Origin: Comamonadaceae bacterium
GTDB lineage: Bacteria > Pseudomonadota > Gammaproteobacteria > Burkholderiales > Burkholderiaceae_C
DNA length: 25,515 nucleotides
Assembly: GCA_024642025.1 (NCBI GenBank)
Contig: JAHEBY010000001.1
Span: 3,464 to 28,978 of the forward strand
Direction of reading: 5' to 3'
Both the position numbers and the translations under genes were made by a program. Below, one piece after another: positions 4,379-25,484 of this stretch; the first letter of the stretch is position 1; each line of letters begins with the position of its first letter. The notes beneath the pieces are model-generated. The model made no database searches. It saw only the letters and a program-made list of their open reading frames with translations, and was not told the DNA's origin.

Positions 4379-4402
4379 CAAACCCCCTAGCAAGGGGGTT
4401 TG
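4379..4402. terminator. Stem-loop between dnaN and gyrB (possible terminator or pause/processing site)
   Basis: CAAACCCCCT-agca-AGGGGGTTTG, a perfect 10-bp stem; no long U-tract. Confidence 0.45.
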
Positions 4403-4426
4403 GTCATTCAAGAGTTTGCAGAATAG

Positions 4427-7045
<2,619 letters not shown>

Positions 7046-7057
7046 TGGTTTTCTGCC

Positions 7058-8587
7058 TCACGTCCCGCAAAAGGTTTTGTACCCTGCCGTTTGCTCAGTT
7101 GTTCCCGGCAAGGCATAGCGCTCAAGACCATCCCGTTTGCCAAAGGGCTGCTTGACCACATCCAAAAGCCGCTCAAAAGGCCGCATGTCACCCTGCTGAG
7201 TGGCTGCATCCAGTGCTTCCTCGACGAGGTGGTTGCGGGGGATGTAAACCGGGTTCGCTTCGCGCATGGCGGCAGTTTGCGCCAGAGGCGAGCGACCTTC
7301 GAGCGCGCTGCGTGCACGCCAGCGCGACAACCATGCGTCCATCGGTGGAGCAGTCGGCGCATCATTGACGGTCGGATGCAGCGCCTGCAACCTGGAGGCG
7401 GTCTGGTGGGGTACTTGGGTTTCGTCTGCCAGGTAATCAAACGCAAGAGTGAAATCTACCTGTCGGCTCGCCAGGGTTTTGAGGAAGTCTGTTGCCAGTG
7501 CAAGGTCGTCTGTGCGCTGTGCTTGCAGGCCGAGCTTGCGGCGCATGCCAGCCAGCCAGTTTCGCTCGTAGTGGATCGGGAACTCGTCCAGCACCTCTGT
7601 GGCCAGCGCCACGGCTCGCTCTGGCGCGTTGGTCATTAGCGGCAACAGGGCTTCGGCAAGGCGGGCGAGGTTCCATCGGGCGATCAGCGGCTGGTTGGCA
7701 TAGGCGTAGCGCCCTTGCAAGTCGATTGAGCTGAAAACGGTGGCTGGATCGTACTGATCCATGAACGCGCAGGGGCCATAGTCGATCGTTTCCCCAGAGA
7801 CGGTCATGTTGTCAGTGTTCATGACACCGTGGATGAATCCAACGTTCATCCAGCGGGCAATCAGCACGGCTTGTCGCTCGGCTACGGCGCGCAGCAAGCT
7901 GAGGTACGGGTTGGGCGCTTCTTTTATTTCAGGGTCGTGCCGGGCAATCGTGTAGTCCGCGAGGCGTCGCAAGTTGTCGATGTCACCTCTTGCCGCAAAG
8001 AACTGGAATGTGCCCACACGAATATGGCTCGAAGCCGCTCTTGTGAGCACAGCCCCTGGTAGTGCGCCCGTCTCGCGGTGCACGGACTCGCCGGTGGTGA
8101 CGGCTGCGAGCGCTCGCGTGGTTGGTATGCCGAGCGCATGCATGGCCTCACCCATCAAGTATTCGCGCAGGACGGGGCCCAGCGCAGCCTTGCCGTCGCC
8201 GCCCCGCGAAAATGGGGTGCGGCCAGAGCCTTTCAGTGCGAGGTCGTGGCGCTTGCCAGCGCGGTCGATCACCTCGCCCAATAGCAATGCCCGCCCGTCA
8301 CCCAGCTGTGGCGAGAAGCCGCCAAACTGATGGCCTGCATAGGCCTGTGCTATGGGTGTAGCGCCTATCGGGACATGATTGCCGGAGAAGATCGCTGCGC
8401 CCAACGGCGAATCTAGTGCCTGCGTGTCCAGTCCCAGCGCATCCGACAACGCGCGGTTATATTTGATCAGCACGGGTTCGACCACCTGCGCCGGCCGGCC
8501 GGGCACGTAAAGGCCTTCCAGCATGCGCGCGTAGGAGTTGTCGAAGTAGAAGCTGGGTTCTGCGGCAATTGGTGTGGCGTTTTCCAT
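7058..8587 (-). CDS. selO: Protein adenylyltransferase SelO (YdiU family)
   Basis: AYAGHQFGGFSPQLGDGRA, LKGSGRTPFSRGGDG, GFIHGVMNTDN, IDYGPCAF and NPVYIPRNH; C-terminus TFCGT. Confidence 0.95.
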   Translation of the reverse strand: MENATPIAAEPSFYFDNSYARMLEGLYVPGRPAQVVEPVLIKYNRALSDALGLDTQALDSPLGAAIFSGNHVPIGATPIAQAYAGHQFGGFSPQLGDGRALLLGEVIDRAGKRHDLALKGSGRTPFSRGGDGKAALGPVLREYLMGEAMHALGIPTTRALAAVTTGESVHRETGALPGAVLTRAASSHIRVGTFQFFAARGDIDNLRRLADYTIARHDPEIKEAPNPYLSLLRAVAERQAVLIARWMNVGFIHGVMNTDNMTVSGETIDYGPCAFMDQYDPATVFSSIDLQGRYAYANQPLIARWNLARLAEALLPLMTNAPERAVALATEVLDEFPIHYERNWLAGMRRKLGLQAQRTDDLALATDFLKTLASRQVDFTLAFDYLADETQVPHQTASRLQALHPTVNDAPTAPPMDAWLSRWRARSALEGRSPLAQTAAMREANPVYIPRNHLVEEALDAATQQGDMRPFERLLDVVKQPFGKRDGLERYALPGTTEQTAGYKTFCGT

Positions 8588-8679
8588 GAATGCAGCTTAC
8601 AGGCAATCATGAAAGTGTGTTCTGCGGTATCTGCGAAAATCGCAGCAGCGTCGCAATCCGCATAACCTTCCCGCCGCCC

Positions 8680-9783
8680 ATGTCCCGCCTTGCCAGAACT
8701 TTGCCGAATGGCACCCACGATTCGAGAGGCCTTGATGACGCGCGCATTCGTTCGGTTCGCCCTTTGATCACGCCAGCGCTTCTTGAGGAACAACTGCCCG
8801 TGGCTGCTGCTGCGCAGGCTTTGGTGGCGGATAGTCGGGCAGCTATTTCACGTGTGCTTCAGGGGCTCGATCAACGGCTGATTGTTGTCGTAGGCCCATG
8901 CTCCATTCATGACCACGATCAGGGTGTGGAATATGCGAAGCGGCTCAAGGAGCAGGCCGATGCGCTGAAGGACGATTTGCTGGTGGTCATGCGGGTCTAT
9001 TTTGAAAAGCCCCGCACTGTTGTGGGCTGGAAGGGTTATATCAACGATCCGCACCTGGACGGCACCTTTGCCATTAACGAGGGCCTGATGTTGGCGCGCC
9101 AATTGCTGCTTGATGTTCTGCTGTTGGGATTGCCGGTTGGCACTGAGTTCCTGGATTTGCTGTCACCGCAGTTCATCAGCGACCTTGTGAGCTGGGGCGC
9201 CATAGGCGCGCGCACAACGGAGAGTCAGAGTCACCGCCAGCTCGCCAGTGGCCTTTCGTGCCCGGTAGGGTTCAAGAACGGTACGGACGGAGGCATCAAG
9301 ATCGCGACAGACGCCATTCAGGCTGCGCGCGCGTCGCACGCCTTTATGGGCATGACAAAGATGGGGCAGGCCGCCATTTATGAGACCCGTGGCAACAGTG
9401 ATTGCCACGTGATTCTGCGTGGTGGCAAAGTGCCGAACTATTCAAGGGCAGACGTTGACACGGCCTGCAAATTGTTGGGCGAAGCGGGGTTGCGCGAACA
9501 GGTCATGATTGACGTGAGTCATGCCAATAGCAGCAAGCTACATTCCCGGCAGATTAGTGTGGCTGCGGACGTCGCACGGCAGATTGCAACTGGCGACAGG
9601 CGGATTGCTGGCGTGATGATTGAGAGCCATCTGAACGAAGGCCGTCAGGAAATTGTTCCCGGCAAAGCGCTCAAGCACGGTGTGTCGGTAACGGATGCCT
9701 GTATAAGCTTTGACCAGACCATTCCCGTGTTGGAAGGCCTGGCGCTTGCGGCCCGCAACAGGCGTGGTATCGCTGCAACCTGA
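8680..9783 (+). CDS. aroG: 3-deoxy-7-phosphoheptulonate (DAHP) synthase, class I (AroF/G/H family)
   Basis: VVGPCSIHD, RVYFEKPRTVVGWKG, GAIGARTTESQSHRQLASG, DVSHANS, MIESH and SVTDAC. Start moved to ATG 8680 because the track's 8590 start lies 2 bp from the divergent selO start. The feedback specificity (F/G/H) cannot be told from sequence. Confidence 0.9.
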   Translation: MSRLARTLPNGTHDSRGLDDARIRSVRPLITPALLEEQLPVAAAAQALVADSRAAISRVLQGLDQRLIVVVGPCSIHDHDQGVEYAKRLKEQADALKDDLLVVMRVYFEKPRTVVGWKGYINDPHLDGTFAINEGLMLARQLLLDVLLLGLPVGTEFLDLLSPQFISDLVSWGAIGARTTESQSHRQLASGLSCPVGFKNGTDGGIKIATDAIQAARASHAFMGMTKMGQAAIYETRGNSDCHVILRGGKVPNYSRADVDTACKLLGEAGLREQVMIDVSHANSSKLHSRQISVAADVARQIATGDRRIAGVMIESHLNEGRQEIVPGKALKHGVSVTDACISFDQTIPVLEGLALAARNRRGIAAT

Positions 9784-9832
9784 TTCTGCTTATACTGGTT
9801 TAACCGATCCTGGCATTCATGTTTGAGGTCTT

Positions 9833-10261
9833 ATGAAGCCGATTACCGAACTGCTCAAGAAACGAAATTCCAGCATGTATCAGGTTGCCCCTGATGTGGT
9901 GGTGTTCGACGGCCTCAAGCTGCTGGCTGAGTACGGTGTGGGGGCGATGCTGGTCATGGATTCAAGCCGCATGGTGGGCATTTTCTCCGAGCGTGATTAC
10001 ACTCGCAAGGTTGCCCTGCAGGGTCTGAATTCCCGCGAAATTACTGTGGCCGATATCATGACGCCGGACGTGATCTCGGTGGGGCCCGCAACCGGCACGC
10101 GCGCGTGCATGAGCCTGATGAGCCAAAACAAAATCCGCCACCTGCCGGTGGTTGACGGTAGCAAGGTACTGGGGCTCATATCGATTCGTGACCTTATGGA
10201 CGACATCATTGCCGAGCATGAGGTCACCATTTCGCAATTACAGAGCTATATATCGGGATAG
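9833..10261 (+). CDS. CBS domain-pair protein
   Basis: 142 aa with GIFSERDYTRKV, VADIMT, IRHLPVVD and GLISIRDL; GAGG SD upstream. Confidence 0.92.
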   Translation: MKPITELLKKRNSSMYQVAPDVVVFDGLKLLAEYGVGAMLVMDSSRMVGIFSERDYTRKVALQGLNSREITVADIMTPDVISVGPATGTRACMSLMSQNKIRHLPVVDGSKVLGLISIRDLMDDIIAEHEVTISQLQSYISG

Positions 10262-10323
10262 GGCGGGGCCGATCTACGTGCTGGTCCGCGGCGGCCGGGT
10301 ATGTTTTAAGTAAAAAAGGGGAA

Positions 10324-10367
10324 CTAGCCCCCTTTAAATATGCCCAGACAGCTATAAATTTAAGAGC
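10324..10367 (+). repeat. Dispersed ~44-bp intergenic repeat, copy A
   Basis: 31/44 identical, ungapped, to 17600-17643. Begins CTAGCCCCC and ends in the 17-nt quasi-palindrome GCTATAAATTTAAGAGC. Confidence 0.7.
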
Positions 10368-10414
10368 AATTCGGGGCGGGTGAGGAGTTTAGTGAGCGCT
10401 CCCAAGACAAAACC

Positions 10415-10428
10415 TAGGGTTTACCCTA
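10415..10428. promoter_or_regulatory. Palindromic operator-like site overlapping a TATACT -10 box
   Basis: TAGGGT-TT-ACCCTA; TATACT at 10427-10432, upstream of the 10469 ORF. Confidence 0.5.
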
Positions 10429-10468
10429 TACTGCACTGCAGCATAAGTTTGCTTTAGGAGGTTTTGCC

Positions 10469-10750
10469 ATGACTGACATCACATTGAAATCCGCCGACCT
10501 TTCGGCGACAGGCGGCGCGCCGGGCGTAGACCAGGCGATTCGCGAACTGGGTCATGCCACGCGGCGGCTCGCGGTGGCTTTGTGGGCGGCGGGCACCCAG
10601 CGGCCAGTGTTTGTACCGCGCGTGCTCACGGCAGCTGAAGAGGCCGCCGAGTTGCGTGAATTTGCAGCGCTCCATATGAAGACCGACCCGGGTTTTGCAG
10701 CAGATTTGTTTGCCGCAGCAGACAGGCACGAACTGACCTGCCGGGAATAG
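10469..10750 (+). CDS. Small hypothetical protein (93 aa, Ala-rich, helical)
   Basis: Strong SD (AGGAGG) and a -10 box upstream. The C-terminal TAAEEAAELREFA...DPGFAADLFAAADRHE reads like a real helical protein; function unknown. Confidence 0.75.
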   Translation: MTDITLKSADLSATGGAPGVDQAIRELGHATRRLAVALWAAGTQRPVFVPRVLTAAEEAAELREFAALHMKTDPGFAADLFAAADRHELTCRE

Positions 10751-10803
10751 GCTTACCTGGGTAGGGTCCTGCCGTTAGTGTTGCGGCTATGCACATTGGG
10801 GCG

Positions 10804-10820
10804 GCTATTTTTTTTGTAGC
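10804..10820 (-). repeat. Possible degenerate third copy of the intergenic repeat (inverted orientation)
   Basis: 17-mer GCTATTTTTTTTGTAGC, followed by TTGCTCA, which is also in the reverse complement of copy B with a 2-nt offset. Confidence 0.4.
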
Positions 10821-10885
10821 GGAATTTGCTCATATGTCTCGCGTTAATATCAGCGCATTAGATATAAATGCAGGCTTGGGCGACC

Positions 10886-11491
10886 ATGATCTACAAGGAG
10901 TTGGATGCGCTTAACAGCGTAGCGGCAGATGCCACGGCCATTCATTTCGCGCAGGAAATGATGGCAGCTCACCTCACACGGGCATTTGCCAGCAGTGGTG
11001 ACGTGGATGTGCTTAGCGGCTTGCGCGTAAAGGCAGGCAACGTCACTGCTCAAGTCGACCACTTGGTGCTCCATCCGTATGGCCTCATGGTGGTGGATTG
11101 CCAGAGCGTGCTTGGGGGCCTGCAGGTTTGTGAAGATGGACAGTGGCTGAGTTGGCGTAACAGCCATGTTTCGGAAATGCGGTCCCCAGTACATCGGGTC
11201 TTTGCGCAGGCCTCTGCGTTCAAGCAGTTTCTTGAAATGAAGGTCAAGCAGCGCGGGTTCTTCAGCAAAATGGAGATGGCGGTCCTTGTGGCTGTGCCAG
11301 ACAAGAGCGCCATCGAGTGGCCGCCCAGCGGAGCCCTGTCAATTGTGTGCAACACCGCGCAGGTTCCCGCGAGAATTCTTCAGCGCGTTCAGGACTGTGC
11401 ATTGCGCTTTGGCGGGCGCGGAATATTTCACGCGGAGCACCGCGATCGGCTGGCCGAGTTTTTATGTGCGGCGCACCAGCCAGATCCTTGA
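10886..11491 (+). CDS. NERD (nuclease-related domain) protein, paralog 1, degenerate catalytic motif
   Basis: AQVDHLVLHPYGLMVVDCQ, aligning to the NERD xIDHxxx...GxxxxExK motif, and SPVHRVFAQ. Start set at MIYKELD, which is shared with paralog 2; the track starts at 10868. Confidence 0.75.
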   Translation: MIYKELDALNSVAADATAIHFAQEMMAAHLTRAFASSGDVDVLSGLRVKAGNVTAQVDHLVLHPYGLMVVDCQSVLGGLQVCEDGQWLSWRNSHVSEMRSPVHRVFAQASAFKQFLEMKVKQRGFFSKMEMAVLVAVPDKSAIEWPPSGALSIVCNTAQVPARILQRVQDCALRFGGRGIFHAEHRDRLAEFLCAAHQPDP

Positions 11492-11662
11492 CGGCAGCTA
11501 TGGGCCAGTCGTTCTCTTCGAGGCCGCATCCCCCCGAGCCCTATGTTGTAACAAAAGGTGTCTAGTGGCTTTGCGGAATCACCACAGTGCCGGATTTCCT
11601 TGCCCGAACGGTTCGTCGCCGGGTAATATGCTGTTTCACGCACCCGCCGCTGGCATCGCATC

Positions 11663-12343
11663 GTGATTTACAAAGAGTTGGACCCGTTCGAATCCAAGGC
11701 CAATGAAAAAATGGCCTATTACTTGCGCCGCGCATTTGCGGGCAGCGAGGATGTGGACGTGCTCAATGGTTTGGTGGTTCGATCTGGCGAGGTCCGGGCG
11801 CAAATGCACCACTTGGTCATGCACCCCTTCGGATTGATTGTGGTTGAAAACCTCGCCGTGCGCGGCACCATCAACATTGAAGCTGACTGGCAGTGGACTC
11901 AACTTCACCGGGGTGAGCACAAACAAATTCGTTCCCCTGTTACCGAGACCAAGTTACAGGCGCTTCAACTGGAAGCTTTTCTGGACAAAAAGGTTCGGCA
12001 GAAGGGTTTCTTTCATAGCCTGGAGCTGGATGTGCTGGTGGCCGTGCCTGATTTGCGAGCCATCAAGTGGCCGCAGAGCGGGCCGTTGCTGGAGGTTTGC
12101 AATGCTGACCAAGTGCCGGAGCAAGTGCTCCGACGCTTATTCCAGTGCAAGATTGAAGCCAAACGTCCTGGCAAGCTTGTTGGCGCGCAGCGTCAGCGCC
12201 TGGCGCAGTTTCTGTGCGCCTCGCACAAGGTGTTACCAAGATTGGTGACTGTGGAAGAAGAGCAATCGACGAGAAGTGGTGAGTTTGGCACTACGTCTGG
12301 CGCGCAATGGAGTGCGTCGTCTCGCGCGAGTGACTTGGGTTGA
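11663..12343 (+). CDS. NERD protein, paralog 2, degenerate catalytic motif
   Basis: GTG start. MIYKELD, RRAFAGSEDVDVLNGL, AQMHHLVMHPFGLIVVENL and LVAVPD; aligns colinearly with paralog 1. Confidence 0.75.
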   Translation: MIYKELDPFESKANEKMAYYLRRAFAGSEDVDVLNGLVVRSGEVRAQMHHLVMHPFGLIVVENLAVRGTINIEADWQWTQLHRGEHKQIRSPVTETKLQALQLEAFLDKKVRQKGFFHSLELDVLVAVPDLRAIKWPQSGPLLEVCNADQVPEQVLRRLFQCKIEAKRPGKLVGAQRQRLAQFLCASHKVLPRLVTVEEEQSTRSGEFGTTSGAQWSASSRASDLG

Positions 12344-12586
12344 CCGTGTGGATGTGTGGCGCTTGCCACGACCGCGCCGGACGAACTTCGCCAAGACACC
12401 ATGGACGGCTTTTACCACTAACTTAGCGCCGTTTGTTCGGTGACGTCACGTCAGCGGCGATTGAACAACACCGAAGGGCTGAAAAGCGTGGTCTTATCGG
12501 ACTTGGCACTATCAGCGACCTCCGAAGCATCGTGCGATGTTATAAATGCGGATTACCAAATACACGGCTAATTCTGTCGCTTCGCC

Positions 12587-12964
12587 ATGGATTGTCTCCC
12601 CCATTTTCACGTTGCTGCCATACACGACAGCGCAGATTTTCAGTCAGCAACCCCGGGCCTCGGGGTTTTTTGTACCCGGGAGAAAGAAGACTCTTCCGCG
12701 ATCATGGGTGCAGGGGTACTTGAAAACAGCTTGGGGCGCACGAGTCTGTATGCCATGTATGGTTGGCGACCCCTGTCGGTGGGGTCAGTAAAACTTGGCG
12801 TTTTTGGAGGCGTTATCAACGGCTACAAAAGGAGTGCGGACCTTTTTGCTGGCGTGAGCGCGTCTGTCCCTTTTAGTTGGGGCGAGGTGCATGTGCTGTT
12901 GCTCCCAAAGGCACCAAATATTTCTCCCACCACGCTTGCCTTGTCTTTCACGGTTCGCTTTTAA
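12587..12964 (+). CDS. Putative small outer-membrane beta-barrel-like protein; signal peptide missing, possibly a 5'-damaged pseudogene
   Basis: Amphipathic strands (PGLGVF, ENSLGRTSLYAMYGW, LGVFGGVINGY) and a C-terminal LALSFTVRF ending in Phe. In-frame TAA five codons upstream of the ATG. Confidence 0.55.
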   Translation: MDCLPHFHVAAIHDSADFQSATPGLGVFCTREKEDSSAIMGAGVLENSLGRTSLYAMYGWRPLSVGSVKLGVFGGVINGYKRSADLFAGVSASVPFSWGEVHVLLLPKAPNISPTTLALSFTVRF

Positions 12965-12997
12965 AGGGCTGACTAGCCACGAAACGGGCATGGACCA

Positions 12998-14563
12998 ATG
13001 CCAGATTCCGGAACCTCCCAAAAGAAACCTTTTGAGATCGCGCGGGAGGCGCTCAGGCAGCTGACCGTCCGCAAATTGGTTCCTACGCCGCAGAATTACC
13101 AGACGGTTTACAACGAAATTGCTGCCATTCCGGATGTGCAACCGTTTCCGGAGGCGGCCTTGCGGCAGATTGCCGCTGAGTTGCCAGTTAAAAACCCGGG
13201 CCAGGAGAGACAACTGGCTTTGCTGGAGTCGGCCATTGGCCGACGCTCGTGGGCCGGCGTTCAAAACGCGCTTGTGGTCTATGCAGGCTTCGCCTCGCCC
13301 GCTGGCGGATCGGAGGCTACGACGGCCGCAACGCTCATTGGTGGTGGCACCAGCCCAAGCTCAGCGCCTGCGTTAACCACAGGGTTCCTTGAGCAGATCG
13401 CCCGGCTGATTGAATACACGCAACCCGCGCTGGGCGATGAGGATGCCCGCTTTAACGAGCAAACCCAGACCATCGTTAGTGCGCTGCGCAAGCCCGAAAC
13501 CGACGTGCTGTCGGCGAAATCGCTTCTGGCCAATTTCAGCCATCGGGTGTCCTTCATGGCGGAAGATCAGGCCGAGATCAAGGCCAACCTGCTGCGGCTT
13601 CTGCACCTGATTTTTCAAAATATCGGTGAGCTCAGTCTTGATGACCGCTGGCTTCAGGGTCAAATTGATGGCTTGATGGCAGCTTCCACGCCACCGTTAT
13701 CCCTGCGTCGGCTTGACGATCTGGAGCGGCGCCTCAAGGATGTAATTTTCAAGCAAACCGAGGCCAAGGGTCGGGCCATGGAGGCGCAGGAGGAGATGCG
13801 CAAGATGCTGCTCACCTTTATTGAGCGGCTTTCACAGATGACCGATTCCACGAGCGCCTTTCAGGCAAAGCTTGAAGACAATGCGCGCCAAATCGAGCAG
13901 GCCAAAACGTTGACCGAAATTGCGCCGGTGCTCAAGGACATGGTCGGTGCGACCCGGGGTATGGCTTCCGAGAGCCGAAGCACGCGCGACGAGCTCCAGG
14001 CCATGCGAAAGCAAACGGCCTCCACTGACGCCGAAATTGCCAAGCTGCATCAGGAGCTGGACCGCGTGAGCAATCTGGCGCGACACGATCCTCTGACAGG
14101 TGCGCTCAACCGTAAAGGACTTGACGAAGCCGTGCAGCGTGAAGTGTCCGCCTTTAAGCGTAAGGAAACCCCTCTGAGCGTTGGCCTGCTGGATATCGAC
14201 AACTTCAAGCTGCTCAACGACCGACTGGGCCATGCCAGTGGCGATGCAGCGCTGGTCCATTTGGCAGAGGTGGCGCGGCAAAGCATGCGACCACAGGACA
14301 CACTCGCAAGGTATGGCGGCGAAGAGTTTGTTATTTTGATGCCCGACACGCCGCTGGACAAAGGTATCGAAGCCATGACCCGCCTTCAGCGCGAGCTCAC
14401 CAAGCGCTTTTTTCTGGCTGGCACGGAGAAGGTGCTGATTACCTTTAGTGCGGGTGTGGCACAGGTGGCACCAGACGAGCCAGGAGATGATGCCATCAAG
14501 CGCGCCGACCAGGCTATGTATCTGGCCAAACGTGCCGGAAAGAATCGCGTGCTGGGCAGTTGA
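12998..14563 (+). CDS. Cytoplasmic diguanylate cyclase (GGDEF) with a long helical/coiled-coil N-terminus
   Basis: RHDPLTGALNR, DIDNFKLLNDRLGHASGD, RPQD I-site five residues before GGEEF, TFSAGVA and RADQAMYLAK. No TM segment seen. Confidence 0.95.
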   Translation: MPDSGTSQKKPFEIAREALRQLTVRKLVPTPQNYQTVYNEIAAIPDVQPFPEAALRQIAAELPVKNPGQERQLALLESAIGRRSWAGVQNALVVYAGFASPAGGSEATTAATLIGGGTSPSSAPALTTGFLEQIARLIEYTQPALGDEDARFNEQTQTIVSALRKPETDVLSAKSLLANFSHRVSFMAEDQAEIKANLLRLLHLIFQNIGELSLDDRWLQGQIDGLMAASTPPLSLRRLDDLERRLKDVIFKQTEAKGRAMEAQEEMRKMLLTFIERLSQMTDSTSAFQAKLEDNARQIEQAKTLTEIAPVLKDMVGATRGMASESRSTRDELQAMRKQTASTDAEIAKLHQELDRVSNLARHDPLTGALNRKGLDEAVQREVSAFKRKETPLSVGLLDIDNFKLLNDRLGHASGDAALVHLAEVARQSMRPQDTLARYGGEEFVILMPDTPLDKGIEAMTRLQRELTKRFFLAGTEKVLITFSAGVAQVAPDEPGDDAIKRADQAMYLAKRAGKNRVLGS

Positions 14564-17659: not shown

Positions 17660-18310
17660 TCAGCTTTGCAATGCCGCTGCCAGTGAGCGCAGCGCAGCGC
17701 CGTTGGCAATGTGAATCTGCTCACGCCCGAGGGTGACCCAACCCTCGTTTTCAAAGCGGCGCAACAATCGGGTGACGATCTCGCGTACCGTGCCCAGTTC
17801 ATCGGCGAGCGTCTGGTGTGTCACTGTGAGCTGTGGACCGTGGCCCAGCAAGGCCGCTGCGAGCCGCTGGTCCAGCTTGTGAAACGCCACAGCGTCGATC
17901 AGGCTCGTGAGGTCGGCCATACGCTCGGCGAACAACGCAAGCACCTCGGTTCGAAACGGGGTTGATTCCAGCCACATGCTGAAAACTTCTGGCGGAATCA
18001 GCAACAGCGACGTCGGCTTGGTGGTGACGCCTTGCGCTGACAGGGGCACTTTGCGAAACAGGCTGGCACTGGAGACCAGACACAGCTCGCCCGGAACCAC
18101 GCGATACAGCTCCAGCGAGCGTCCGTCGCCCGAGTTGCGCGAGACTTTGATTTCACCTTCGAGCACCAGCGGAAAACCCCGGCAAGGTGCGTTCGCATCA
18201 AATAGAACTGCGCCAGCTGGGGCCTCCAGGGGGCCGGCACGGGAGCCCAGATCAGCCAGGGGTGGTGTGACCTGAGCCAGTGAAGGGTACAGGCCAAGGG
18301 GGTTTAACAT
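17660..18310 (-). CDS. Crp/Fnr family transcriptional regulator
   Basis: cNMP-binding-like N-terminal domain (PLVLEGEIKV, GRSLELYRVVPGELC) and HTH THQTLADELGTVREIVTRLL. Confidence 0.93.
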   Translation of the reverse strand: MLNPLGLYPSLAQVTPPLADLGSRAGPLEAPAGAVLFDANAPCRGFPLVLEGEIKVSRNSGDGRSLELYRVVPGELCLVSSASLFRKVPLSAQGVTTKPTSLLLIPPEVFSMWLESTPFRTEVLALFAERMADLTSLIDAVAFHKLDQRLAAALLGHGPQLTVTHQTLADELGTVREIVTRLLRRFENEGWVTLGREQIHIANGAALRSLAAALQS

Positions 18311-18338: not shown

Positions 18339-19619
18339 TTATGGCATCTGTGAAGACCCCCGTCCGGCAGGTGGTGATGCGCTCCAGGCCGCCTGCGACA
18401 ACGCTTCGGCTAGCGCTTCGCGCTCGGCCCGCGGCATGGGGCGCAGGCTATTGGCAACCCACTGTGCGCGCGGGAGGTTGATCTGGCCCGTGGCATCCCA
18501 ACTTTGGGCCTCGGCCGACGGATGATGAAGCATGGCGGCCAGCCAGATGGCCTGGGTTGCATCCAGCTCTTGTGCCCGCACACCGAAATACCGGTTGGCG
18601 GCCGCATCCGCCCCGCAAATTCCATCGCCCCATGGCGCATGGTCCAGATACAAACGCAGGATGCGCGCCTTGCCGAGGGTTTGCTCCATCTCCACGGCAT
18701 ACAGCAATTCGCGCAGTTTGCGAATCGGTGTGCGCTCGCCGCCGGTGACCAGAAGGCGCGCCAGCTGTTGGGACAAGGTGCTTGCGCCGCGCTCGATGCG
18801 CCCCTCGTGTTGATTGCGTTGCAGCGATTCGGTGAGTTCCGAAAGGTCATAGCCTGAATGCTCATAAAACCGCTGGTCTTCGGCGGCAATCACGGCCCGC
18901 GCGAGCACGCTGTCTGTGCGCATGCGGCTTCTGCGCAAACCGGCTGCGCAGTTGCTCCTGGCGCTCCTGAATGCTTCGGTGCCAAGGCCGTTTACGGTGA
19001 ATCCCGCCAGGTGCGGCTTGAAGCTGAACTCTCCCGACGGCAATGTCACGCTGGCTCTCAGTCCAAACGTGCCTTCAATACTGGCAGACTGCCATTCCGG
19101 TATGGCCTGGGCAAACAGTTCATAGCCATCGCGAATCGGTGTGTCCGCAAGCTCGAGTTGTACGCGCATGGCGTCAGGCGTCAGGCGGCCACGCCATGGC
19201 GCGATCAGCTTGCCCGTCGACAGCTGCCCTTCCAGTTGCGAGCCTTGGCGGCGCACCGTCAGCCCGACCGCGTCGAGCAACAGGGTTTCTGCACCCAGGC
19301 TGTGTGCAGGCACCCGGCAGGGTTTGCACTGCATGGCAAGCCACTTCCGCTTGTCGTCCCAATCAACGTGGACCGGCCCGAGTCGGGTTTGTATCGAATA
19401 CCCGTCAAGCAGCGCGCCAACCCATGGCGTGGTGCCGATCCAGATGAGTGATGGAACACTGGCTTCAATCTCCATTGGCCCAAGATGCAATGTCGTGGCC
19501 CAGCCACCGGCTTCAGGTTTCAGCGCCTGACGCACGCCCCACAGCAGCCCGATGGCGCACAAGACGAGCGCAACGGTGGCCATGCCCAGAATTGCGAGCG
19601 CCCGATGAATGATTTTCAT
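18339..19619 (-). CDS. Peptidoglycan transglycosylase (GT51, monofunctional) with an N-terminal TM anchor and beta-rich domain
   Basis: GT51 motifs AAEDQRFYEH, GASTLSQQLAR, RKLRE, YLDHAPWG and GADAAANRYFG; no transpeptidase domain. Start set at ATG 19619 (ATGA overlap with the upstream gene). Confidence 0.88.
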   Translation of the reverse strand: MKIIHRALAILGMATVALVLCAIGLLWGVRQALKPEAGGWATTLHLGPMEIEASVPSLIWIGTTPWVGALLDGYSIQTRLGPVHVDWDDKRKWLAMQCKPCRVPAHSLGAETLLLDAVGLTVRRQGSQLEGQLSTGKLIAPWRGRLTPDAMRVQLELADTPIRDGYELFAQAIPEWQSASIEGTFGLRASVTLPSGEFSFKPHLAGFTVNGLGTEAFRSARSNCAAGLRRSRMRTDSVLARAVIAAEDQRFYEHSGYDLSELTESLQRNQHEGRIERGASTLSQQLARLLVTGGERTPIRKLRELLYAVEMEQTLGKARILRLYLDHAPWGDGICGADAAANRYFGVRAQELDATQAIWLAAMLHHPSAEAQSWDATGQINLPRAQWVANSLRPMPRAEREALAEALSQAAWSASPPAGRGSSQMP

Positions 19620-20185
19620 AACGACTCTGCGGTCGTGATGGCTTGCCAGGGGCCGATTGACGTGCCGGTTATGGAGGCCCAGTACCAGGCAGAGGTGTCG
19701 GTGAAGTTCTGGCCAGCCGCATCGGTGATGTGCTCGCACACGCGCAGGTGCTGACCGGCTCGCTCAGCCACAAAGCAGCGCTGCAAACGGTGCTGCCCGA
19801 CCGTAACCAGCTGCTCATCGTGGATTTGATAGCCAATACCCTTGTAGCAATCTGCCGCGGGGTGCAACATGCGGGTGGGCTGTTGCACGGTGCGCACCAC
19901 CATGACCCGCTGCCCGTCGGTCAACCGCGCAATCGTGCCGGGGAATCGCCGCGCGAAGCGGCGTTCGACCTCGCCCAAGGCGAGCGGGCGCATTGGTTGA
20001 CCGTCCCACAAAACGGGCAACTCGGCGCCAGCCTGGGTTGTGATGAGGTTTGCGGGCCTGTTGACGTTTCTGGCCGGGTTTTGAAGTGCTTGGGCAAGCC
20101 CCCAGAGGGCACACAGGGGCAGCACAATGGCCCAAAGGGTTTTGTGCATGACGCGGTTCACAAACCGGTTGTCGAACCAGCTCAT
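19616..20185 (-). CDS. Exosortase-associated EpsI-like periplasmic protein
   Basis: N-terminal TM helix and HPAADCYKGIGY, similar to the EpsI HxPxxCYxxxGF motif. ATGA overlaps with both neighbours when the start is set at 20185. Confidence 0.7.
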   Translation of the reverse strand: MSWFDNRFVNRVMHKTLWAIVLPLCALWGLAQALQNPARNVNRPANLITTQAGAELPVLWDGQPMRPLALGEVERRFARRFPGTIARLTDGQRVMVVRTVQQPTRMLHPAADCYKGIGYQIHDEQLVTVGQHRLQRCFVAERAGQHLRVCEHITDAAGQNFTDTSAWYWASITGTSIGPWQAITTAESL

Positions 20186-21072
20186 AGCACACCACCTATG
20201 CTGAACTGGGGCGAGGGGCGCGACATCACCCACACAATGCCGCAGCACACAACGGCCAGCATCGCCAGACCCACCCCCTCGTGCGCCCAGGCCGGCACCG
20301 TTTGGCCAGACGCGTCAAGTGCAACCAGAATGGTGTTGCGCACCACGTTGCCGGCTAACACCATGGCGCTTGCCAACGGCAGCCGTCGCAAAAACAATCC
20401 GTTGGTGAACCCCGCATGGCGACCCCCGGCATGGATGGCCACCACGCAAGCCGTGAAATAGCCGAACCACACCATTTGGACGCCCGAGCAGGGTGCGTCC
20501 ACAATAATGAGATGGCCATTGACCTGCAGGCTGGTGCCGCTTCGCGTGACCTCATGTTGAACCATCAGCAGCCAGCGACTGAGCTCCGCCGTGAGTACGC
20601 GCAGTGGATAGCCGGCGTAGAACTGCAACGATGCCAGCAGAGGTAGCGACAGCACAGACAGGCCAATGACCGGCACTACGTTCACGCGCGTAGGCAGGAA
20701 GGCGGTCAGGCCCGCCGCCAGCGCAAGCAAGGCAATCAGCGCAGCGGCCAGATCAGGCAACAGGCTGCGTGCGGCAGTCGCCAGAACGGCACCGCACAGT
20801 GCCGTGGCCAGCCAACCCAGGCGTGGTGATGGCCGCAGGGCATACCGATAAGCCCATACCACCGAGCCCAGAGCGGCTAGCGCCAGCAATCCCAGTGGAT
20901 CGTCCGAGCCGTCGGTCATGCGCCGGGCCATCCACCACCAGGTGGGCCACAACGAAACGGTGAGCAGCAGCAGCCACAGCCATTCGGGCGCCGTATCCAC
21001 GCGGATGCCGAAATCGACAACGCGAGGCATCTGCAGCAGGCGGGAAGGTCCGTAGCTTTGAAGGTGCTTCAT
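20182..21072 (-). CDS. xrtQ: Exosortase (probably exosortase Q subtype)
   Basis: Multi-TM protein with the exosortase Cys-Arg-His triad in VDAPCSG, NVVRNT and WAHEGVG; DGSDDPLG motif. The subtype is recalled from similar proteins and needs an HMM check. Start set at ATG 21072, 2 nt after the VIT gene stop. Confidence 0.85.
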   Translation of the reverse strand: MKHLQSYGPSRLLQMPRVVDFGIRVDTAPEWLWLLLLTVSLWPTWWWMARRMTDGSDDPLGLLALAALGSVVWAYRYALRPSPRLGWLATALCGAVLATAARSLLPDLAAALIALLALAAGLTAFLPTRVNVVPVIGLSVLSLPLLASLQFYAGYPLRVLTAELSRWLLMVQHEVTRSGTSLQVNGHLIIVDAPCSGVQMVWFGYFTACVVAIHAGGRHAGFTNGLFLRRLPLASAMVLAGNVVRNTILVALDASGQTVPAWAHEGVGLAMLAVVCCGIVWVMSRPSPQFSIGGVL

Positions 21073-21074
21073 GA

Positions 21075-23126
21075 TCAGGCCGTGTAGCGGTTGACGTTGC
21101 GGGTGTGACGGCGTTCGCGGCGCGCCAGCATGGCCAGCATTGACAGCACCACCAGTACAGCGCCCCATGTTGCCGGCTCGGGCGTGCTGGGGACCTCAGC
21201 CCCCACGGCAAGGTTGCTCACGCCTTGTGGCAGCGGCGACGGCTGGTTCACGCTGGTGCTGTCTTGCGGCGCCGGGTTGCGCACGACCTGGTCTACAGCA
21301 ATGAAGCTGGTGTAGTTGGTGAGCAGGCTGTATTTCAGACCCAGATCGGTGATGCGCTTTGCCCAGGCATCGCCACCCTCAAGGGCCTCCTGGTCAGACA
21401 GGCTGGCGATGCGGTGACGGGCCCAGAGGTGGCGCAGCGCGGCGTTGCCTGTAGTGGCGGTGGCTTCGGCGTCGATGGGCAGGGTTTGCCGGAACGGGCC
21501 GTTGGCATTTTGACCATCCACAATCAGGCTGCCTTTGCCCTCACCGCGCCATTTGCCAAACACGATCACCGGGCGACCGGCCAGTACATCGGGCAACTGG
21601 GCGGGCTCGACGTCGTACACGTCCAGACCTTCAAACCGGGCCTTCACGCTGGTCAGTACGGGTGAATCGATCATGCGGCGAAAGCGTGCCGCCTGCTCCG
21701 CGGCTTCGGACGGCTGCGTGATGATGAATGGCTCGCCCATGCCGGCACGCGCCAGGCCTTCCATCAGATGTCGGTTGACAGATGAGCCAATGCCAAACGA
21801 AAACAGATTTGCTGCAGACAGGTTTTTACGCACCAGTTCAAAGGCTTCCCGCTCCACGGTCACATAGCCGTCGGTTACCACGACCACGGTTCGCGATACA
21901 TCCGTGGCCTTGGGTTCTGCATAAACGCGCTTGAGGGCCGGAATCAGTTCGGTGCTGCCGCCACCACCCATCCGGTCTATGGTGCGAATGGCCAGGTCAA
22001 TATTGGCACGGGTCGCTGGCACCGACTGGGGGTTTAGCAGCCGGTTGCTGCCCGAGAACAGCAACACGTTAAAGGTGTCGCTGGGGCGCAGGTTGCCGAT
22101 CAGTTCGCGAAGCAGGGTCTTCGCCGTGTCCAGCGGAAAGCCGTGCATGGATCCGGATATGTCGACGACAAATATGTAGTCTCGTGGAGAAATGGCTGTT
22201 GCTGAAGGAGCTTTGGGCGGTTCCACCATCGCCAGAAAGAAGTTCTCGTCGGTGCCTTTGTACAGCAGCACGCCCGACTCGATGGCATCGCCCGCCAATC
22301 GGTAGTTCAGAATGAAGTCACGGTTGTTGACGGGCACCACGGTGCTTTTCAGGCTCACCAAAGAGGTGCCGCCCGTCTGCAGCTCGGTGTTGATGTCATG
22401 CGTGTTCGAGTGGATTTCTTTCACCCCGATCGGCGTGGCCAGAGCCACGCGAATGTCGAACGCCGCTGGCGACGCGGTGCCCTGTGGCAGGATGGGCTGG
22501 CTGACCCACGTTGAGCGCGCCTGTGACGATTGCGGGCTGTTGTAGCGTGGCCCCACCACAGTGGGAAAGACAAACTGGTAGTTGCCGTCCGTCGGAACCA
22601 GCAGCTCGGTGTAGCGCAGCTCTACTTTCACGTCGTCACCGGGCAGGATGTTGGCGACGTTCATCTGAAACACGTTGGGCAAATGCTGCTCCAGAAGGGC
22701 GGCGGTCTTGCCTTCCTTTTTTGCCGTGTCGTATTCGATGCGCGCCTGCTGCTTTTCCCTGATCTTCGCGGTGATCAGCCGGTCACCCAGGCGCACGCTC
22801 ATGCCGTGCACAGCCGCCTGTGTGGAGCCGGGGAACACGTATTTCGCTTCAATGGCGCGCTGGCCTTCGTTCTTGTAACGCTGTGTGACGGTCACGTCTG
22901 CAATCACCCCCGAGATGCGCACGTCAACCTGTGTGGACTTCAGCGGCAGCTGGTCTACCGTGGGGTCGTCGCTCTTGATGAAAAAGTAGGGGCTCTCAGT
23001 TTTCAGGCGTGGTGCGTCGCGGTCTTGCGCGTGAGCCGATTCGGCCACCAATGCCACGAAACAAAGTGTGGCCATTCCGGCGGTGGCCAGCCATAGCCAG
23101 CGGGCAGTAAGGTGAGCAGGGAACAT
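21075..23126 (-). CDS. Exported VIT + vWA domain protein with a C-terminal PEP-CTERM-type sorting signal
   Basis: Signal peptide (…AESAHA), VIT domain (VRISGVIADVTVTQRY, AKYVFP, NVFQMNVANI), MIDAS DISGSM..T..TDG, and C-terminal TPEPATW + TM helix + RRERRH. GGAG SD upstream. Confidence 0.92.
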   Translation of the reverse strand: MFPAHLTARWLWLATAGMATLCFVALVAESAHAQDRDAPRLKTESPYFFIKSDDPTVDQLPLKSTQVDVRISGVIADVTVTQRYKNEGQRAIEAKYVFPGSTQAAVHGMSVRLGDRLITAKIREKQQARIEYDTAKKEGKTAALLEQHLPNVFQMNVANILPGDDVKVELRYTELLVPTDGNYQFVFPTVVGPRYNSPQSSQARSTWVSQPILPQGTASPAAFDIRVALATPIGVKEIHSNTHDINTELQTGGTSLVSLKSTVVPVNNRDFILNYRLAGDAIESGVLLYKGTDENFFLAMVEPPKAPSATAISPRDYIFVVDISGSMHGFPLDTAKTLLRELIGNLRPSDTFNVLLFSGSNRLLNPQSVPATRANIDLAIRTIDRMGGGGSTELIPALKRVYAEPKATDVSRTVVVVTDGYVTVEREAFELVRKNLSAANLFSFGIGSSVNRHLMEGLARAGMGEPFIITQPSEAAEQAARFRRMIDSPVLTSVKARFEGLDVYDVEPAQLPDVLAGRPVIVFGKWRGEGKGSLIVDGQNANGPFRQTLPIDAEATATTGNAALRHLWARHRIASLSDQEALEGGDAWAKRITDLGLKYSLLTNYTSFIAVDQVVRNPAPQDSTSVNQPSPLPQGVSNLAVGAEVPSTPEPATWGAVLVVLSMLAMLARRERRHTRNVNRYTA

Positions 23127-23249
23127 GATGCTTTCTCCAGAACAAGCGTGCGACGTTGCACGGTGTCTGTAGCATCGGCGGCGGAAGCGAAGCCAGTTTG
23201 AAGTGGCTGTGCGCTGTTGCGCCTTTTGGAAGGGTAATGGGGAGCCTGG

Positions 23250-23276
23250 GGGAAGGCTGTGTGAAGTCTGAGTGAA
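23250..23276 (-). promoter_or_regulatory. cre-tag (CreB binding site) direct repeats upstream of the VIT operon
   Basis: On the - strand: TTCAC-tcagac-TTCAC-acagcc-TTCCC, at 11-bp periodicity. Matches the E. coli cre-tag TTCACnnnnnnTTCAC. Candidate -10 TACCCT at 23231-23236. Confidence 0.8.
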
Positions 23277-23277
23277 G

Positions 23278-24741
23278 TCACGTCAGTTTGCTTTTGCGCG
23301 GCAGCGACAGCGTGGCCACCACGCCAGGCCCATGGCCCTCAGGCTGGTTGGCGAGGCTGATGCGCCCTCGGTGCAGTTTGGCAATTTCCCTGACGAAAGA
23401 CAGGCCCAGTCCGGTGCTCTTTTTTCTGGAGTGTGGTCGGGCGAGGGAGTAAAATTTTTCGAACACCTTGTCCTGCGCATAGTCTGGAATGCCCGGACCC
23501 TGGTCGAGCACCACAATGTCGGCAGTCCCGTTTCCAACCCGCACGGTCAGCTTGACCACGCCGCCTTCGGGCGAGAAATCCAGCGCATTGTCCAGCAGGT
23601 TGCTCACAGCGCGTCGTATCAGGAACGGATCGCCCTCCACCACTGCGCCCTCGGGCACATCGAGCTCAATGCGCACCTGCCGCAGTGTGGCCTGGCTTTG
23701 TGCCGCGCTTGCCAACTCGGCAAGCATGGTCTTTAGCGCAACGGGCTCCATGTGATCCAGCACCCGGCGGCTCTCCAGCGCGGTGAGCTCCATCATGCGG
23801 TCCACCATTTCCTGAATGCGCTGGGTTTCCCGCTGGATGTTGGCCAGAAACCGCTCGCGCTCGACCTGAGGCATGTCGGCCTCCTGCAGCAGTTCGGCTG
23901 CACCGCGTATGGCCGACAGCGGGCTTTTCACCTCGTGTGTGAGTGTCTGCACATAGTCGGCTACGTAGTTGCGGCCCGCCAATGCGTCGCGCATTTCGTC
24001 GTAAGCGGCCCTGAATAGTGCCAGCGCGTGGCGTACCAGGCGCATTGGATTGAAGCCGCGCTGGGCCCGGACAAACCGCGCATAGTCGGTGATCAGACCA
24101 AATGGCCGCACCAGCCAGGCCGACACGATCACGGCCAGCAGCAACACCGACACCACCGACACCACGCCCACGTAAAGCGTTTTTTCACGTGCTGCTGCAA
24201 CAAACTGGCCAAAGCTCTGCACCGGTTTGCCCAGAGTGACCACGCCAATAATTTCACCGTTGCCGCCGTTCGTCCATCGTACGGGTGCGCCCACATACAT
24301 GACAGACGTGGTGCCGTCACCCAGCACGTCGGCAGATGTGCGGGCACCGTATTCGCCATCCAGCGTCATGCGGACGTCTCGCCATCCAGAGAAGTCTTCT
24401 CCCGTTCCCTGACCCGTGGAGTCAAACAGCACGCGCCCGTTGCGGTCTGTCACATAGGCGCGGAGCTCGATTCGGGTTTTGGTGAGGCTGAAAATTTGCG
24501 CTTTGAACTCGCGCGCATACAGCGACTTGAACAGCGGTTCAAGCCGGGCAGTGTCGATGGCACCATCGCGCACGTCCTGCTCGATCAGCGTGGCCATCAA
24601 GTGTGAGGTTTCGACCAGCGATTCTTCGGCTGACTCTCGATAGCGCGGGTCCAGGTCTGACACCACGCGATACAGCGTGAAGCCGATGCCCGCTGCGTAA
24701 ATCAGCAAAATGCCGAAAAAGATGCGGCTGCGCTTGCTCAA
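23278..24741 (-). CDS. creC: Two-component sensor histidine kinase CreC
   Basis: Two TM segments around a periplasmic domain (YRESAEESLVETS...ELRAYVTD...EYGART), H-box THEVKSP, N-box NLLDNA, DQGPGIP, FEKFYS and STGLGL. TTG start overlaps the creB stop. Confidence 0.93.
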   Translation of the reverse strand: MSKRSRIFFGILLIYAAGIGFTLYRVVSDLDPRYRESAEESLVETSHLMATLIEQDVRDGAIDTARLEPLFKSLYAREFKAQIFSLTKTRIELRAYVTDRNGRVLFDSTGQGTGEDFSGWRDVRMTLDGEYGARTSADVLGDGTTSVMYVGAPVRWTNGGNGEIIGVVTLGKPVQSFGQFVAAAREKTLYVGVVSVVSVLLLAVIVSAWLVRPFGLITDYARFVRAQRGFNPMRLVRHALALFRAAYDEMRDALAGRNYVADYVQTLTHEVKSPLSAIRGAAELLQEADMPQVERERFLANIQRETQRIQEMVDRMMELTALESRRVLDHMEPVALKTMLAELASAAQSQATLRQVRIELDVPEGAVVEGDPFLIRRAVSNLLDNALDFSPEGGVVKLTVRVGNGTADIVVLDQGPGIPDYAQDKVFEKFYSLARPHSRKKSTGLGLSFVREIAKLHRGRISLANQPEGHGPGVVATLSLPRKSKLT

Positions 24742-25484
24742 GTTGGTCTCGATGCCGGCCAGTCTTCGGTAAGCGCGTAGCCGGTGCCGCGCAGGGTGCG
24801 AATGGCGTCTGCGTCCGGCGCGATGGCCTTCAACTTGGCTCGCAGGGTCTTGATGTGGGCATCTACCGTGCGGTCAAAACTGTCGCTGTCGTCATCCCAG
24901 ACTTTGGCCAGCAACTCCTCGCGGCTGAAAACCCGCCCCGGGCGCTGAACCAGCAAGCGCAACACGCCATATTCATAGCGCGAGAGTTCCAGCAGCTGGT
25001 TGTAAAAGCGGATTTGGTGGCGTTCCTCGTCCAGTGCGAACGGTAAAGTAGGTGTGCCGCGCGATGGGGCGGCGGGTGCGGCCAGACCGTTCCCAGGCGC
25101 GGCGCGAGCGCTGCGGCGAAGGATGCTGCGCACGCGGGCCACAAATTCACGGGGCGAAAAGGGCTTGGCAATGTAATCGTCTGCGCCCAGCTCAAGCCCC
25201 ACCACGCGGTCAATTTCGTCACTGCGCGCGGTCAGAAAAAGCATGGGAACGTGCGCGCCACCCGGCAGCGCCTGAAGCCGCTTGAAGAGCTCGAATCCAT
25301 TCAGGTCAGGCAGCCCAACGTCCAACACCGCCAGCGCTGGCGGTTGAGCCGAAAACTCGCGAATCGCATCGTCTGCCGTGCTGCACCACACGGGCGCAAA
25401 GCCGTCGGTAGACAGCACGTATTGCAGCGTGTCTGCAATGCCCGACTCGTCTTCAACCAGGAGGATGCGCGGCTTTTGAACCAT
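24738..25484 (-). CDS. creB: Two-component response regulator CreB (OmpR family)
   Basis: ILLVEDE, LDVGLPD, FLTARSDEIDRVVGLELGADDYIAKPFSPRE, and winged helix RTVDAHIKTLRAKL…RGTGY; adjacent to creC. Confidence 0.95.
   Translation of the reverse strand: MVQKPRILLVEDESGIADTLQYVLSTDGFAPVWCSTADDAIREFSAQPPALAVLDVGLPDLNGFELFKRLQALPGGAHVPMLFLTARSDEIDRVVGLELGADDYIAKPFSPREFVARVRSILRRSARAAPGNGLAAPAAPSRGTPTLPFALDEERHQIRFYNQLLELSRYEYGVLRLLVQRPGRVFSREELLAKVWDDDSDSFDRTVDAHIKTLRAKLKAIAPDADAIRTLRGTGYALTEDWPASRPT

Follow-up and report, generated by a model that had tools for sequence, protein, structure and literature searches.

The exosortase Q operon behind creBC in Comamonadaceae, a possible exosortase-based counterpart of the Shewanella dedicated sortase module

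Introduction

What does an exosortase with a single cargo protein do behind the two-component genes creBC, at the place where many relatives carry creD? This question is raised by the right end of a 25,515-nt stretch of DNA from a Comamonadaceae bacterium (assembly GCA_024642025.1, contig JAHEBY010000001.1). The whole stretch is called the window here. Its right end carries six genes, all on the minus strand: creB, creC and, after a spacer, the genes of a VIT-vWA protein (the cargo), exosortase Q (XrtQ), an EpsI-like protein and a peptidoglycan glycosyltransferase-like protein of family GT51. We consider it rather probable, by analogy, that the locus is a CreBC-regulated cell-envelope operon and corresponds, with an exosortase in place of the sortase, to the "proteobacterial dedicated sortase" (Pds/PghKR) module, which has been studied in Shewanella.

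Exosortases have been recognised in genomes for about two decades, and to our knowledge no acceptor and almost no physiology have been described for them. The XrtQ system is minimal, with one enzyme, one cargo, a defined regulator and a recognisable operator, and it makes the exosortase question testable. Its hosts are culturable and genetically tractable, for instance Variovorax paradoxus and Rhodoferax.

Gene order and distribution

The window covers the terminal 25.5 kb of a 29-kb contig. The source is an incomplete metagenome-assembled genome of 2.87 Mb in 459 contigs (74% complete), and the host type is given as a freshwater or soil betaproteobacterium. The closest relatives of the window genes were found in Rhodoferax, Curvibacter, Polaromonas and Variovorax, all of which are Comamonadaceae. 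The genes and elements of the locus described below lie on the minus strand throughout. The gene creB (24738-25484) encodes an OmpR-type response regulator with the Pfam domains Response_reg and Trans_reg_C, and its product scored 307 bits with the CreB equivalog model NF008296, the cut-off of which is 273. The sensor histidine kinase gene creC (23278-24741) was read to start with a TTG overlapping the creB stop, and its product reached 576 bits with the CreC equivalog model NF008312 (cut-off 356). A spacer of 151 nt (23127-23277) containing repeats of the cre-tag type separates creC from the cargo gene, and the coupling of these two genes is not tight. The cargo gene (21075-23126) encodes a protein of 683 aa, predicted to be exported, with Pfam matches to VIT and VWA_3. 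It is followed by the genes of XrtQ (20182-21072; 296 aa; NF012182 and Pfam Exosortase_EpsH), of the membrane-anchored EpsI-like accessory protein (19616-20185; 189 aa) and of the membrane-anchored GT51 protein (18339-19619; 426 aa; Pfam Transgly). The cargo and XrtQ genes are joined by TGA-TC-ATG, a gap of 2 nt, and each of the next two junctions is an ATGA overlap. An earlier note on this DNA had described the six genes with their places and strand, the 2-nt gap and the two overlaps, and all of these were confirmed.

The distribution of the system was determined in 201 evenly sampled genomes of the family, in which raw counts were taken that ignore shared ancestry. XrtQ was found in 36 genomes, CreC in 88, CreD in 61 and the N-terminal domain of the GT51 protein in 35. 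Every genome with XrtQ also had CreC (36 of 36), and none of the 113 CreC-negative genomes had XrtQ. The 88 CreC genomes were divided into 49 with creD only, directly after creC, 24 with XrtQ only, 12 with both and three with neither. The slot downstream of creC was occupied by creD in 49 of the 52 CreC genomes without XrtQ. When creD and XrtQ were both present, creD was located on another contig, far away, or in inverted orientation. In Variovorax ginsengisoli (L026) and in G018 and G178, creC and the cassette flank creD, which is read from the opposite strand. No match to CreD (PF06123) was obtained in the source genome, which is 74% complete. Because creD and XrtQ largely alternate among the CreC genomes, the wording "in place of creD" in the earlier note is a fair description.

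About 375 species-level genomes encode a relative of XrtQ, and the best 80 of them all belong to the Comamonadaceae. In a phylum-wide sample of 401 genomes, bona fide XrtQ was found outside the family once, in G432. The cassette of G432 consists of the cargo, XrtQ and EpsI-like genes with no GT51 gene, and a real CreC is encoded on another contig.

The cre-tags and the promoter region

The E. coli-type cre/blr tag is defined as TTCAC-N6-TTCAC (PMC4689548). This exact sequence occurs once in the window, at 23261-23276, 1 nt past the creC stop, where the chance expectation for the window is 0.10. It is part of a longer array, TTCAC-TCAGAC-TTCAC-ACAGCC-TTCCC (23250-23276), in which three 5-mers are repeated with an 11-bp period and the third one, TTCCC, follows the exact tag in phase. 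Related loci were then compared. Among the 75 with a usable start of the VIT gene, the exact tag was present 115-231 nt upstream of this start in 72. It was kept while the distance to creC ranged from 0.15 to more than 6 kb, and also where the fetched locus contained no creBC. The tag was kept as well in unlinked cassettes, namely in G111, where creC is 46 kb away, and in G008 and G045, where creC is on another contig. The same tag was found in front of creD. Of 20 family genomes without XrtQ, 13 have the exact tag in the creC-creD spacer, and 19 have it when one mismatch is allowed. The relocated creD of eight XrtQ genomes was preceded by the exact tag in six, and by overlapping 1-mismatch tags in the other two. 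Because the tag precedes creD both in relatives without XrtQ and where creD has been relocated, it is, as judged from these sequences, a mark of CreB targets in the Comamonadaceae. The control by CreB that the earlier note had proposed is supported at the sequence level by this tag, in linked and unlinked cassettes alike.

For the promoter elements, 25 diverse upstream regions were aligned. Downstream of the distal tags, the alignment contains a degenerate tag, a GATGCT hexamer, a palindrome and a ribosome-binding site, all conserved. The proximal degenerate tag, TTCAAACTGGCTTCGC (23187-23202), matches the tag with two mismatches and is a likely replacement of the -35 element. The block CTTCaaAnnGnCTTCnC is conserved in the 25 regions, and 10 nt separate its end from the -10-like hexamer GATGCT (23171-23176), which itself is conserved as GAt.cT in the 25 loci. 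CreB may bind the proximal degenerate tag. The spacing of tag and hexamer resembles activation of the OmpR/PhoB type, where a box would replace the -35 element, as is generally known of the pho boxes. A scan for consensus sigma-70 promoters and terminators gave nothing above chance, and GATGCT was not picked up by it. TACCCT, which had been proposed as the -10 element by the earlier reader, lies inside an insertion of about 45 nt that is unique to the window and is not conserved in the alignment; GATGCT is preferred.

The palindrome CGTGCA-ACGT-CGCACG (23147-23162) is located in the leader, between the -10-like hexamer and the ribosome-binding site of the VIT gene, and is conserved as cGTGCA....cGCAcg in the 25 loci. 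In L027 it shows a symmetric change, CATGC...GCATG. An RNA hairpin was considered for this element and rejected, with a folding energy no better than that of shuffled sequence (z = 0.08). The palindrome might serve a second regulator as its operator. Four sequencing runs of unknown type over the V. paradoxus locus yielded no more than short contigs at low depth, which came from related strains. Upstream of the VIT gene of G432 (L089, 7956-7971), TCCAC-N6-TCCAC was observed, with the same change in both half-sites.

The cargo protein and exosortase Q

The cargo contains a VIT domain at residues 62-172 (Pfam, 2e-36) and a vWA domain with a metal ion-dependent adhesion site (MIDAS) at residues 318-467 (VWA_3, 7e-16). 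Its translation shows the MIDAS as VVDISGSM ... T ... D, of the DxSxS type, and a signal peptide ending in SAHA/QD. The PEP-CTERM sorting signal is encoded at 21108-21185 (G000:C220:24571-24648) and consists of TPEP, 17 hydrophobic residues and RRERR. It is followed by an extra tail to ...RYTA, which reaches 21078. The signal scored 20.9 bits with the PEP-CTERM model TIGR02595, of which the cut-off is 16. The tail pattern GAEVP[SG]TPEP ... RRxRR ... [RH][FY]T[AS] is common to nearly all of 77 homologues.

The exosortase scored 364.1 bits with NF012182 (cut-off 270) over profile positions 1-255 of 256, and it also matches Pfam Exosortase_EpsH (3.5e-22) and the signature domain TIGR04178. Orthologues in Rhodoferax, Curvibacter and Polaromonas are annotated by NCBI as "exosortase Q". 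By its model score, the enzyme of the window belongs to this already named family. Cys195 (in APCSG), Arg245 and His264, which correspond to the catalytic Cys, Arg and His of the exosortase/archaeosortase active site, do not vary among 10 homologues. The MIDAS, the PEP-CTERM-type tail and the exosortase Cys/Arg/His triad, which the earlier note had described, were thus seen again in the translations, the model match and the alignment of homologues. In G000, G069 and G018, XrtQ is the sole exosortase, and the sole PEP-CTERM match is the adjoining VIT-vWA protein. Two genomes with an additional classical exosortase gave 9 and 17 PEP-CTERM matches. The genomes with XrtQ only bear out the earlier proposal of one dedicated cargo for this exosortase.

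The cargo was also compared with TIGR03788, the model of the marine proteobacterial sortase targets. It matched profile positions 2-626 of 629 with 442.6 bits, below the cut-off of 551.65. As far as this profile tells, the cargo is a homologue of the TIGR03788 proteins and not an equivalog. A sorting-signal swap was looked for among the 150 closest cluster representatives of the cargo. PEP-CTERM-like tails were found in 14 of them, terminal TonB_C, outer-membrane beta-barrel or other domains in others, and LPXTG-type tails in none. Because of this last result, the link of the cargo to sortase targets is carried solely by the match to the TIGR03788 profile. Three relatives of the cargo (P0147, P0137 and P0162), with 44-55% identity in the VIT-vWA core, end in TonB_C, in TonB_C plus FKBP, or in an outer-membrane beta-barrel.

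Damaged copies of the system were observed as well. In G045, a frameshift interrupts XrtQ in a tagged cassette whose other genes are intact (L097, G045:C10, 9929-10757), and a second, fragmentary XrtQ and GT51 copy with internal stops is present on G045:C30. The cassette of L093 (G021:C1:2346500-2366499, about 8999-12329) is distant from creBC and untagged, its VIT match covers only residues 463-670, and it may be a decaying copy.

The EpsI-like protein and the GT51 protein

The EpsI-like protein gave no Pfam match, and PF11984/DUF3485 was matched by just one of 25 homologues (E = 0.062). An alignment (8.6e-9) was obtained with the C-terminal portion of the exosortase T model, which is EpsI-like. 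An AlphaFold2 model with a mean predicted local distance difference test (pLDDT) value of 86.7 was compared with the AFDB clusters by Foldseek, and many members of the EpsI family, together with exosortases that contain an EpsI domain, were matched (E values from 6e-5 to 1e-2). In the related loci, its gene is always immediately 3' of XrtQ. What justifies the name given in the earlier note is thus the fold together with the context, and not a family model: the predicted fold, the exosortase T model and the position after XrtQ agree with it, and the Pfam family does not.

The GT51 protein is composed of a transmembrane helix (residues 2-33), a beta-rich domain (40-210) and the GT51 domain (220-410), in which the Pfam Transgly match covers residues 237-389 (9e-43). 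Motifs 1-4 with both catalytic glutamates are invariant in 25 homologues (E247-D248..F..H254, G278xST..QQ, R300-K301..E304 and K317). A transpeptidase domain is absent. The beta-rich domain of 170 residues between the membrane helix and the glycosyltransferase (GT) domain is confidently predicted in the structure model, and the structure comparison found no specific structural relative of it. Four cysteines are invariant across the protein. With the MtgA model TIGR02070, the protein scored 141 bits, under the cut-off of 182.65. From MtgA and the GT domains of class A penicillin-binding proteins (PBPs), it differs by this additional membrane-proximal domain and by the restriction of its type to XrtQ/CreBC contexts.

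The GT51 gene follows the EpsI-like gene in nearly all related loci. In the 201-genome sample, its N-terminal domain was present in 33 of the 36 XrtQ genomes and in two of the 165 genomes without XrtQ, so the co-conservation with the exosortase and VIT genes that the earlier note had asked about is found. One of the two carriers outside the XrtQ set, G171, has a contig end directly after the EpsI-like gene. A locus of G159 (L098, G159:C1:3450000-3468000, about 5800-9600) contains creB, creC, the exact cre-tag and then GT51 alone; VIT, XrtQ and EpsI-like genes are absent from this locus, and no creD was found in the genome. In G175, G047, L012 and L048, creBC, the tag and the cargo, XrtQ and EpsI-like genes are present and GT51 is absent. 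Because each part occurs by itself in these genomes, the cargo/XrtQ/EpsI-like unit and GT51 are probably two separable CreB effectors, usually combined, rather than one obligatory machine. The module is therefore not as strictly self-contained as the earlier note had proposed, given GT51 alone in G159 and the four cassettes that lack GT51.

Comparison with known systems

In Shewanella oneidensis, PghKR (also named pdsS/pdsR) responds to peptidoglycan-targeting antibiotics and to the loss of PBP1a, and induces blaA, relV, creD, phoPQ and the operon pdsO-SO2195-SO2196 (bioRxiv 10.1101/2023.05.05.539549). Tolerance of beta-lactams and D-cycloserine depends on SO2195, a VIT-vWA sortase target that keeps spheroplasts intact; the anchoring site of SO2195 and its need for the sortase are stated as unknown (PMC13712847; mBio 2026). 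Exosortases and PEP-CTERM are not mentioned in that paper (PMC13712847). In S. algae, a point mutation in pdsS was selected during carbapenem therapy and raised the operon 100- to 800-fold, with creD also up, so that the sortase target is overexpressed in this carbapenem-resistant mutant (PMC11580497). The XrtQ system resembles this module in several respects. There is a single VIT-vWA cargo of one protein family, as indicated by the full-profile match to TIGR03788, a dedicated sorting enzyme is encoded beside the cargo, and a two-component system adjoins. A peptidoglycan-related accessory protein is encoded in each operon, and creD is a further target of each regulator, for CreB as judged from the tags. 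However, XrtQ is a membrane exosortase unrelated to the sortase SO2196, and its cargo signal is PEP-CTERM, whereas the Shewanella cargo carries PQTST, a motif of the LPXTG type. CreBC takes the place of the regulator, and the marine_sort models gave only 113 bits against 612 for the histidine kinase (TIGR03785) and 132 against 336 for the response regulator (TIGR03787). The accessory proteins are a GT51 polymerase and an EpsI-like protein instead of the OmpA-like PdsO, and the host range is the Comamonadaceae. No sortase domain was found among the proteins of the operon by Pfam and NCBIfam searches, and no OmpA-like gene is present in the cassette.

The CreBC-CreD (BlrAB-BlrD) systems of E. 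coli, Aeromonas, Pseudomonas and Stenotrophomonas share orthologous creB and creC with the locus, and also the TTCAC-N6-TTCAC tag before the gene downstream of creC (PMC4689548). They differ in the tagged unit behind creC, which is creD there and the XrtQ operon here.

A dedicated exosortase with one VIT-domain protein is also known as the exosortase N (XrtN) system (TIGR04476/TIGR04477). XrtN is the second-best exosortase model for the enzyme of the window, yet with 45 bits against a cut-off of 200. The XrtN cargo has another architecture, and a link to CreBC or GT51 is not known for XrtN. Distant XrtQ-like/EpsI-like pairs of other lineages (G276, G288 and G527) lie beside VIT proteins of about 800 aa that are related to the XrtN-system cargo and match its model TIGR04477. 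In G527 (L092, G527:C1:564000-583999, about 7285-13105), a VIT protein of 772 aa matches this model below its cut-off. Next to it, a single open reading frame of 408 aa is apparently a fusion of an XrtQ-like exosortase with an EpsI-like domain. After it come a response regulator that resembles CreB (207 bits, where the cut-off is 273) and a histidine kinase with a HAMP domain.

In the papers that could be searched, nothing relevant came up on "exosortase Q" or XrtQ, nor on CreBC in combination with an exosortase or a transglycosylase. The enzyme family has already received its name, and a working analogue has been described; the context of VIT-vWA cargo, EpsI-like protein, GT51 and CreB is not in the literature that was searched.

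Discussion

Taken together, the operon in the creD slot, its conserved tags and its single PEP-CTERM cargo would fit the following course of events. Cell-wall damage or another CreC signal would lead to phosphorylation of CreB. Phosphorylated CreB would bind the perfect tags at the distal site and the degenerate one at the proximal site, 10 nt upstream of GATGCT, and would switch on the four genes as one transcript. The VIT-vWA protein would be exported by Sec and then retained in the inner membrane via its PEP-CTERM helix. XrtQ, aided by the EpsI-like protein, would cut at TPEP and hand the cargo to an acceptor. The GT51 enzyme would contribute glycan polymerisation that is insensitive to beta-lactams. 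As the net result, the envelope would be stabilised while peptidoglycan synthesis is compromised, as was shown for the homologous SO2195 in Shewanella. This role in envelope stress is suggested by analogy, and the experiments on the Shewanella sortase system support it (PMC13712847, PMC11580497).

Several points weigh against this reading. CreBC of E. coli responds to growth conditions and not to wall damage. The exact tag is missing in a few cassettes, namely L008/G195 (1-mismatch tags only), L016, L067, G021 and G432. The function carried over from SO2195 is an analogy, because the cargo scores below the TIGR03788 cut-off. The benefit of GT51 is not obvious, because added glycan polymerisation under beta-lactams can be harmful, as a futile cycle. 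A prediction of the complex of XrtQ, the EpsI-like protein and the cargo tail scored 0.13, where the mark was 0.32, and speaks neither for nor against the reading.

Three other explanations were weighed. The TTCAC repeats might have remained from the intergenic region of creC and creD without being a functional CreB operator, with the operon driven by another regulator. The tag does lie 1 nt past the creC stop, where an ancestral creD promoter would sit, and no sigma-70 consensus promoter was detected. Nevertheless, the distance from the tag to the VIT start is fairly constant (115-231 nt) at creC distances from 0.15 to more than 6 kb, and the tag persists on other contigs or 46 kb from creBC. 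Moreover, a conserved second site and a -10-like hexamer accompany it, and XrtQ never occurs without CreC in the 201-genome sample. We therefore regard a mere leftover as very improbable. A different use of the cargo is conceivable with CreB control left in place. The VIT-vWA protein might be an XrtQ-sorted surface adhesin of an adhesion or biofilm module, in which CreBC answers nutritional or growth signals and GT51 is a co-regulated passenger. PEP-CTERM proteins in general are associated with exopolysaccharide and with the formation of flocs, vWA domains with a MIDAS commonly bind ligands, and CreBC of E. coli responds to growth in minimal media. The relatives of the cargo with TonB_C or outer-membrane beta-barrel ends would fit a structural or adhesive role too, and creD is grouped with biofilm genes in the S. 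algae study (PMC11580497). However, in the window and the loci examined, the cassette has no exopolysaccharide genes as neighbours, and the sole experiment on a homologous cargo indicates envelope integrity under wall stress (PMC13712847). The near-constant glycan polymerase partner is also left unexplained, and an adhesion module seems unlikely to us.

The same partner is at the centre of the remaining explanation, since it suggests a specific hypothesis on the destination of the cargo. XrtQ might act like a sortase and join the cleaved VIT-vWA cargo to lipid II, a peptidoglycan precursor, or to nascent glycan, and GT51 might polymerise the product into the sacculus, so that the four genes form one pathway of covalent wall anchoring. 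XrtQ would then be a Gram-negative functional equivalent of sortase, and its cargo would be built into the sacculus by GT51 via a route insensitive to beta-lactams. The GT51 N-terminal domain is almost confined to XrtQ genomes (33 of the 35 carriers), and its gene comes immediately after that of the EpsI-like protein; the ATGA overlaps point to coupled translation; and the catalytic residues of GT51 are strictly conserved. A homologous cargo is served by a sortase elsewhere, and lipid II is the acceptor used by Gram-positive sortases. However, the parts are separable: G159 carries GT51 without cargo, XrtQ and EpsI-like protein, and G175, G047, L012, L048 and G432 lack GT51. We also know of no acceptor of any exosortase. 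For these reasons we give wall anchoring only a small chance. If it were true, the long-sought exosortase acceptor would be identified, and it would be explained why the same cargo family is served by sortases in other Proteobacteria.

The CreBC-regulated envelope operon, as the counterpart of the Pds/PghKR module, remains the reading that we prefer. Because a homologous cargo mediates beta-lactam tolerance in Shewanella via a sortase system, two unrelated sorting enzymes would deliver the same kind of protein. This would be a convergent design, in which each sorting system is under a sensor associated with cell-wall stress. CreBC would also gain a second major output beside creD.

Neighbouring genes

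The genes 3' of GT51 vary among the loci. In V. paradoxus this place is taken by a GNAT gene, in the Rhodoferax group by a CRP-like gene, and in other loci by open reading frames without a Pfam match. Because these genes are not conserved, the cassette is considered to end at GT51. In the window, the CRP-family regulator gene (17660-18310, minus strand) starts 28 nt past the GT51 stop and may be co-transcribed. A CRP-like gene after the cassette was observed only in Rhodoferax-like loci (L002, L007, L013, L014, L019, L021, L022 and L024), not in Variovorax.

The left part of the window contains dnaA, dnaN, gyrB, SelO, DAHP synthase, two NERD, GGDEF, DUF2189 and LTXXQ genes. The locus (18339-25484) is about 11 kb from dnaA-dnaN-gyrB (1570-7045). 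The XrtQ locus is also near coordinate zero in several complete genomes, at 10-31 kb in V. paradoxus, at 58-79 kb in Comamonadaceae OS-4 and at about 146-149 kb in G018 and G095, a proximity that may be due to chance.

The gap between creC and the tagged VIT gene is a variable insertion site in relatives (L015:3325-7950, L033:4652-7989 and L007:4545-7852). Genes of the defence type were observed at this site. They encode a STAND NTPase 7 protein whose sirtuin domain is inactive, a TOPRIM/AAA protein of the OLD-like kind and an ATPase with AAA_14 and DUF4143.

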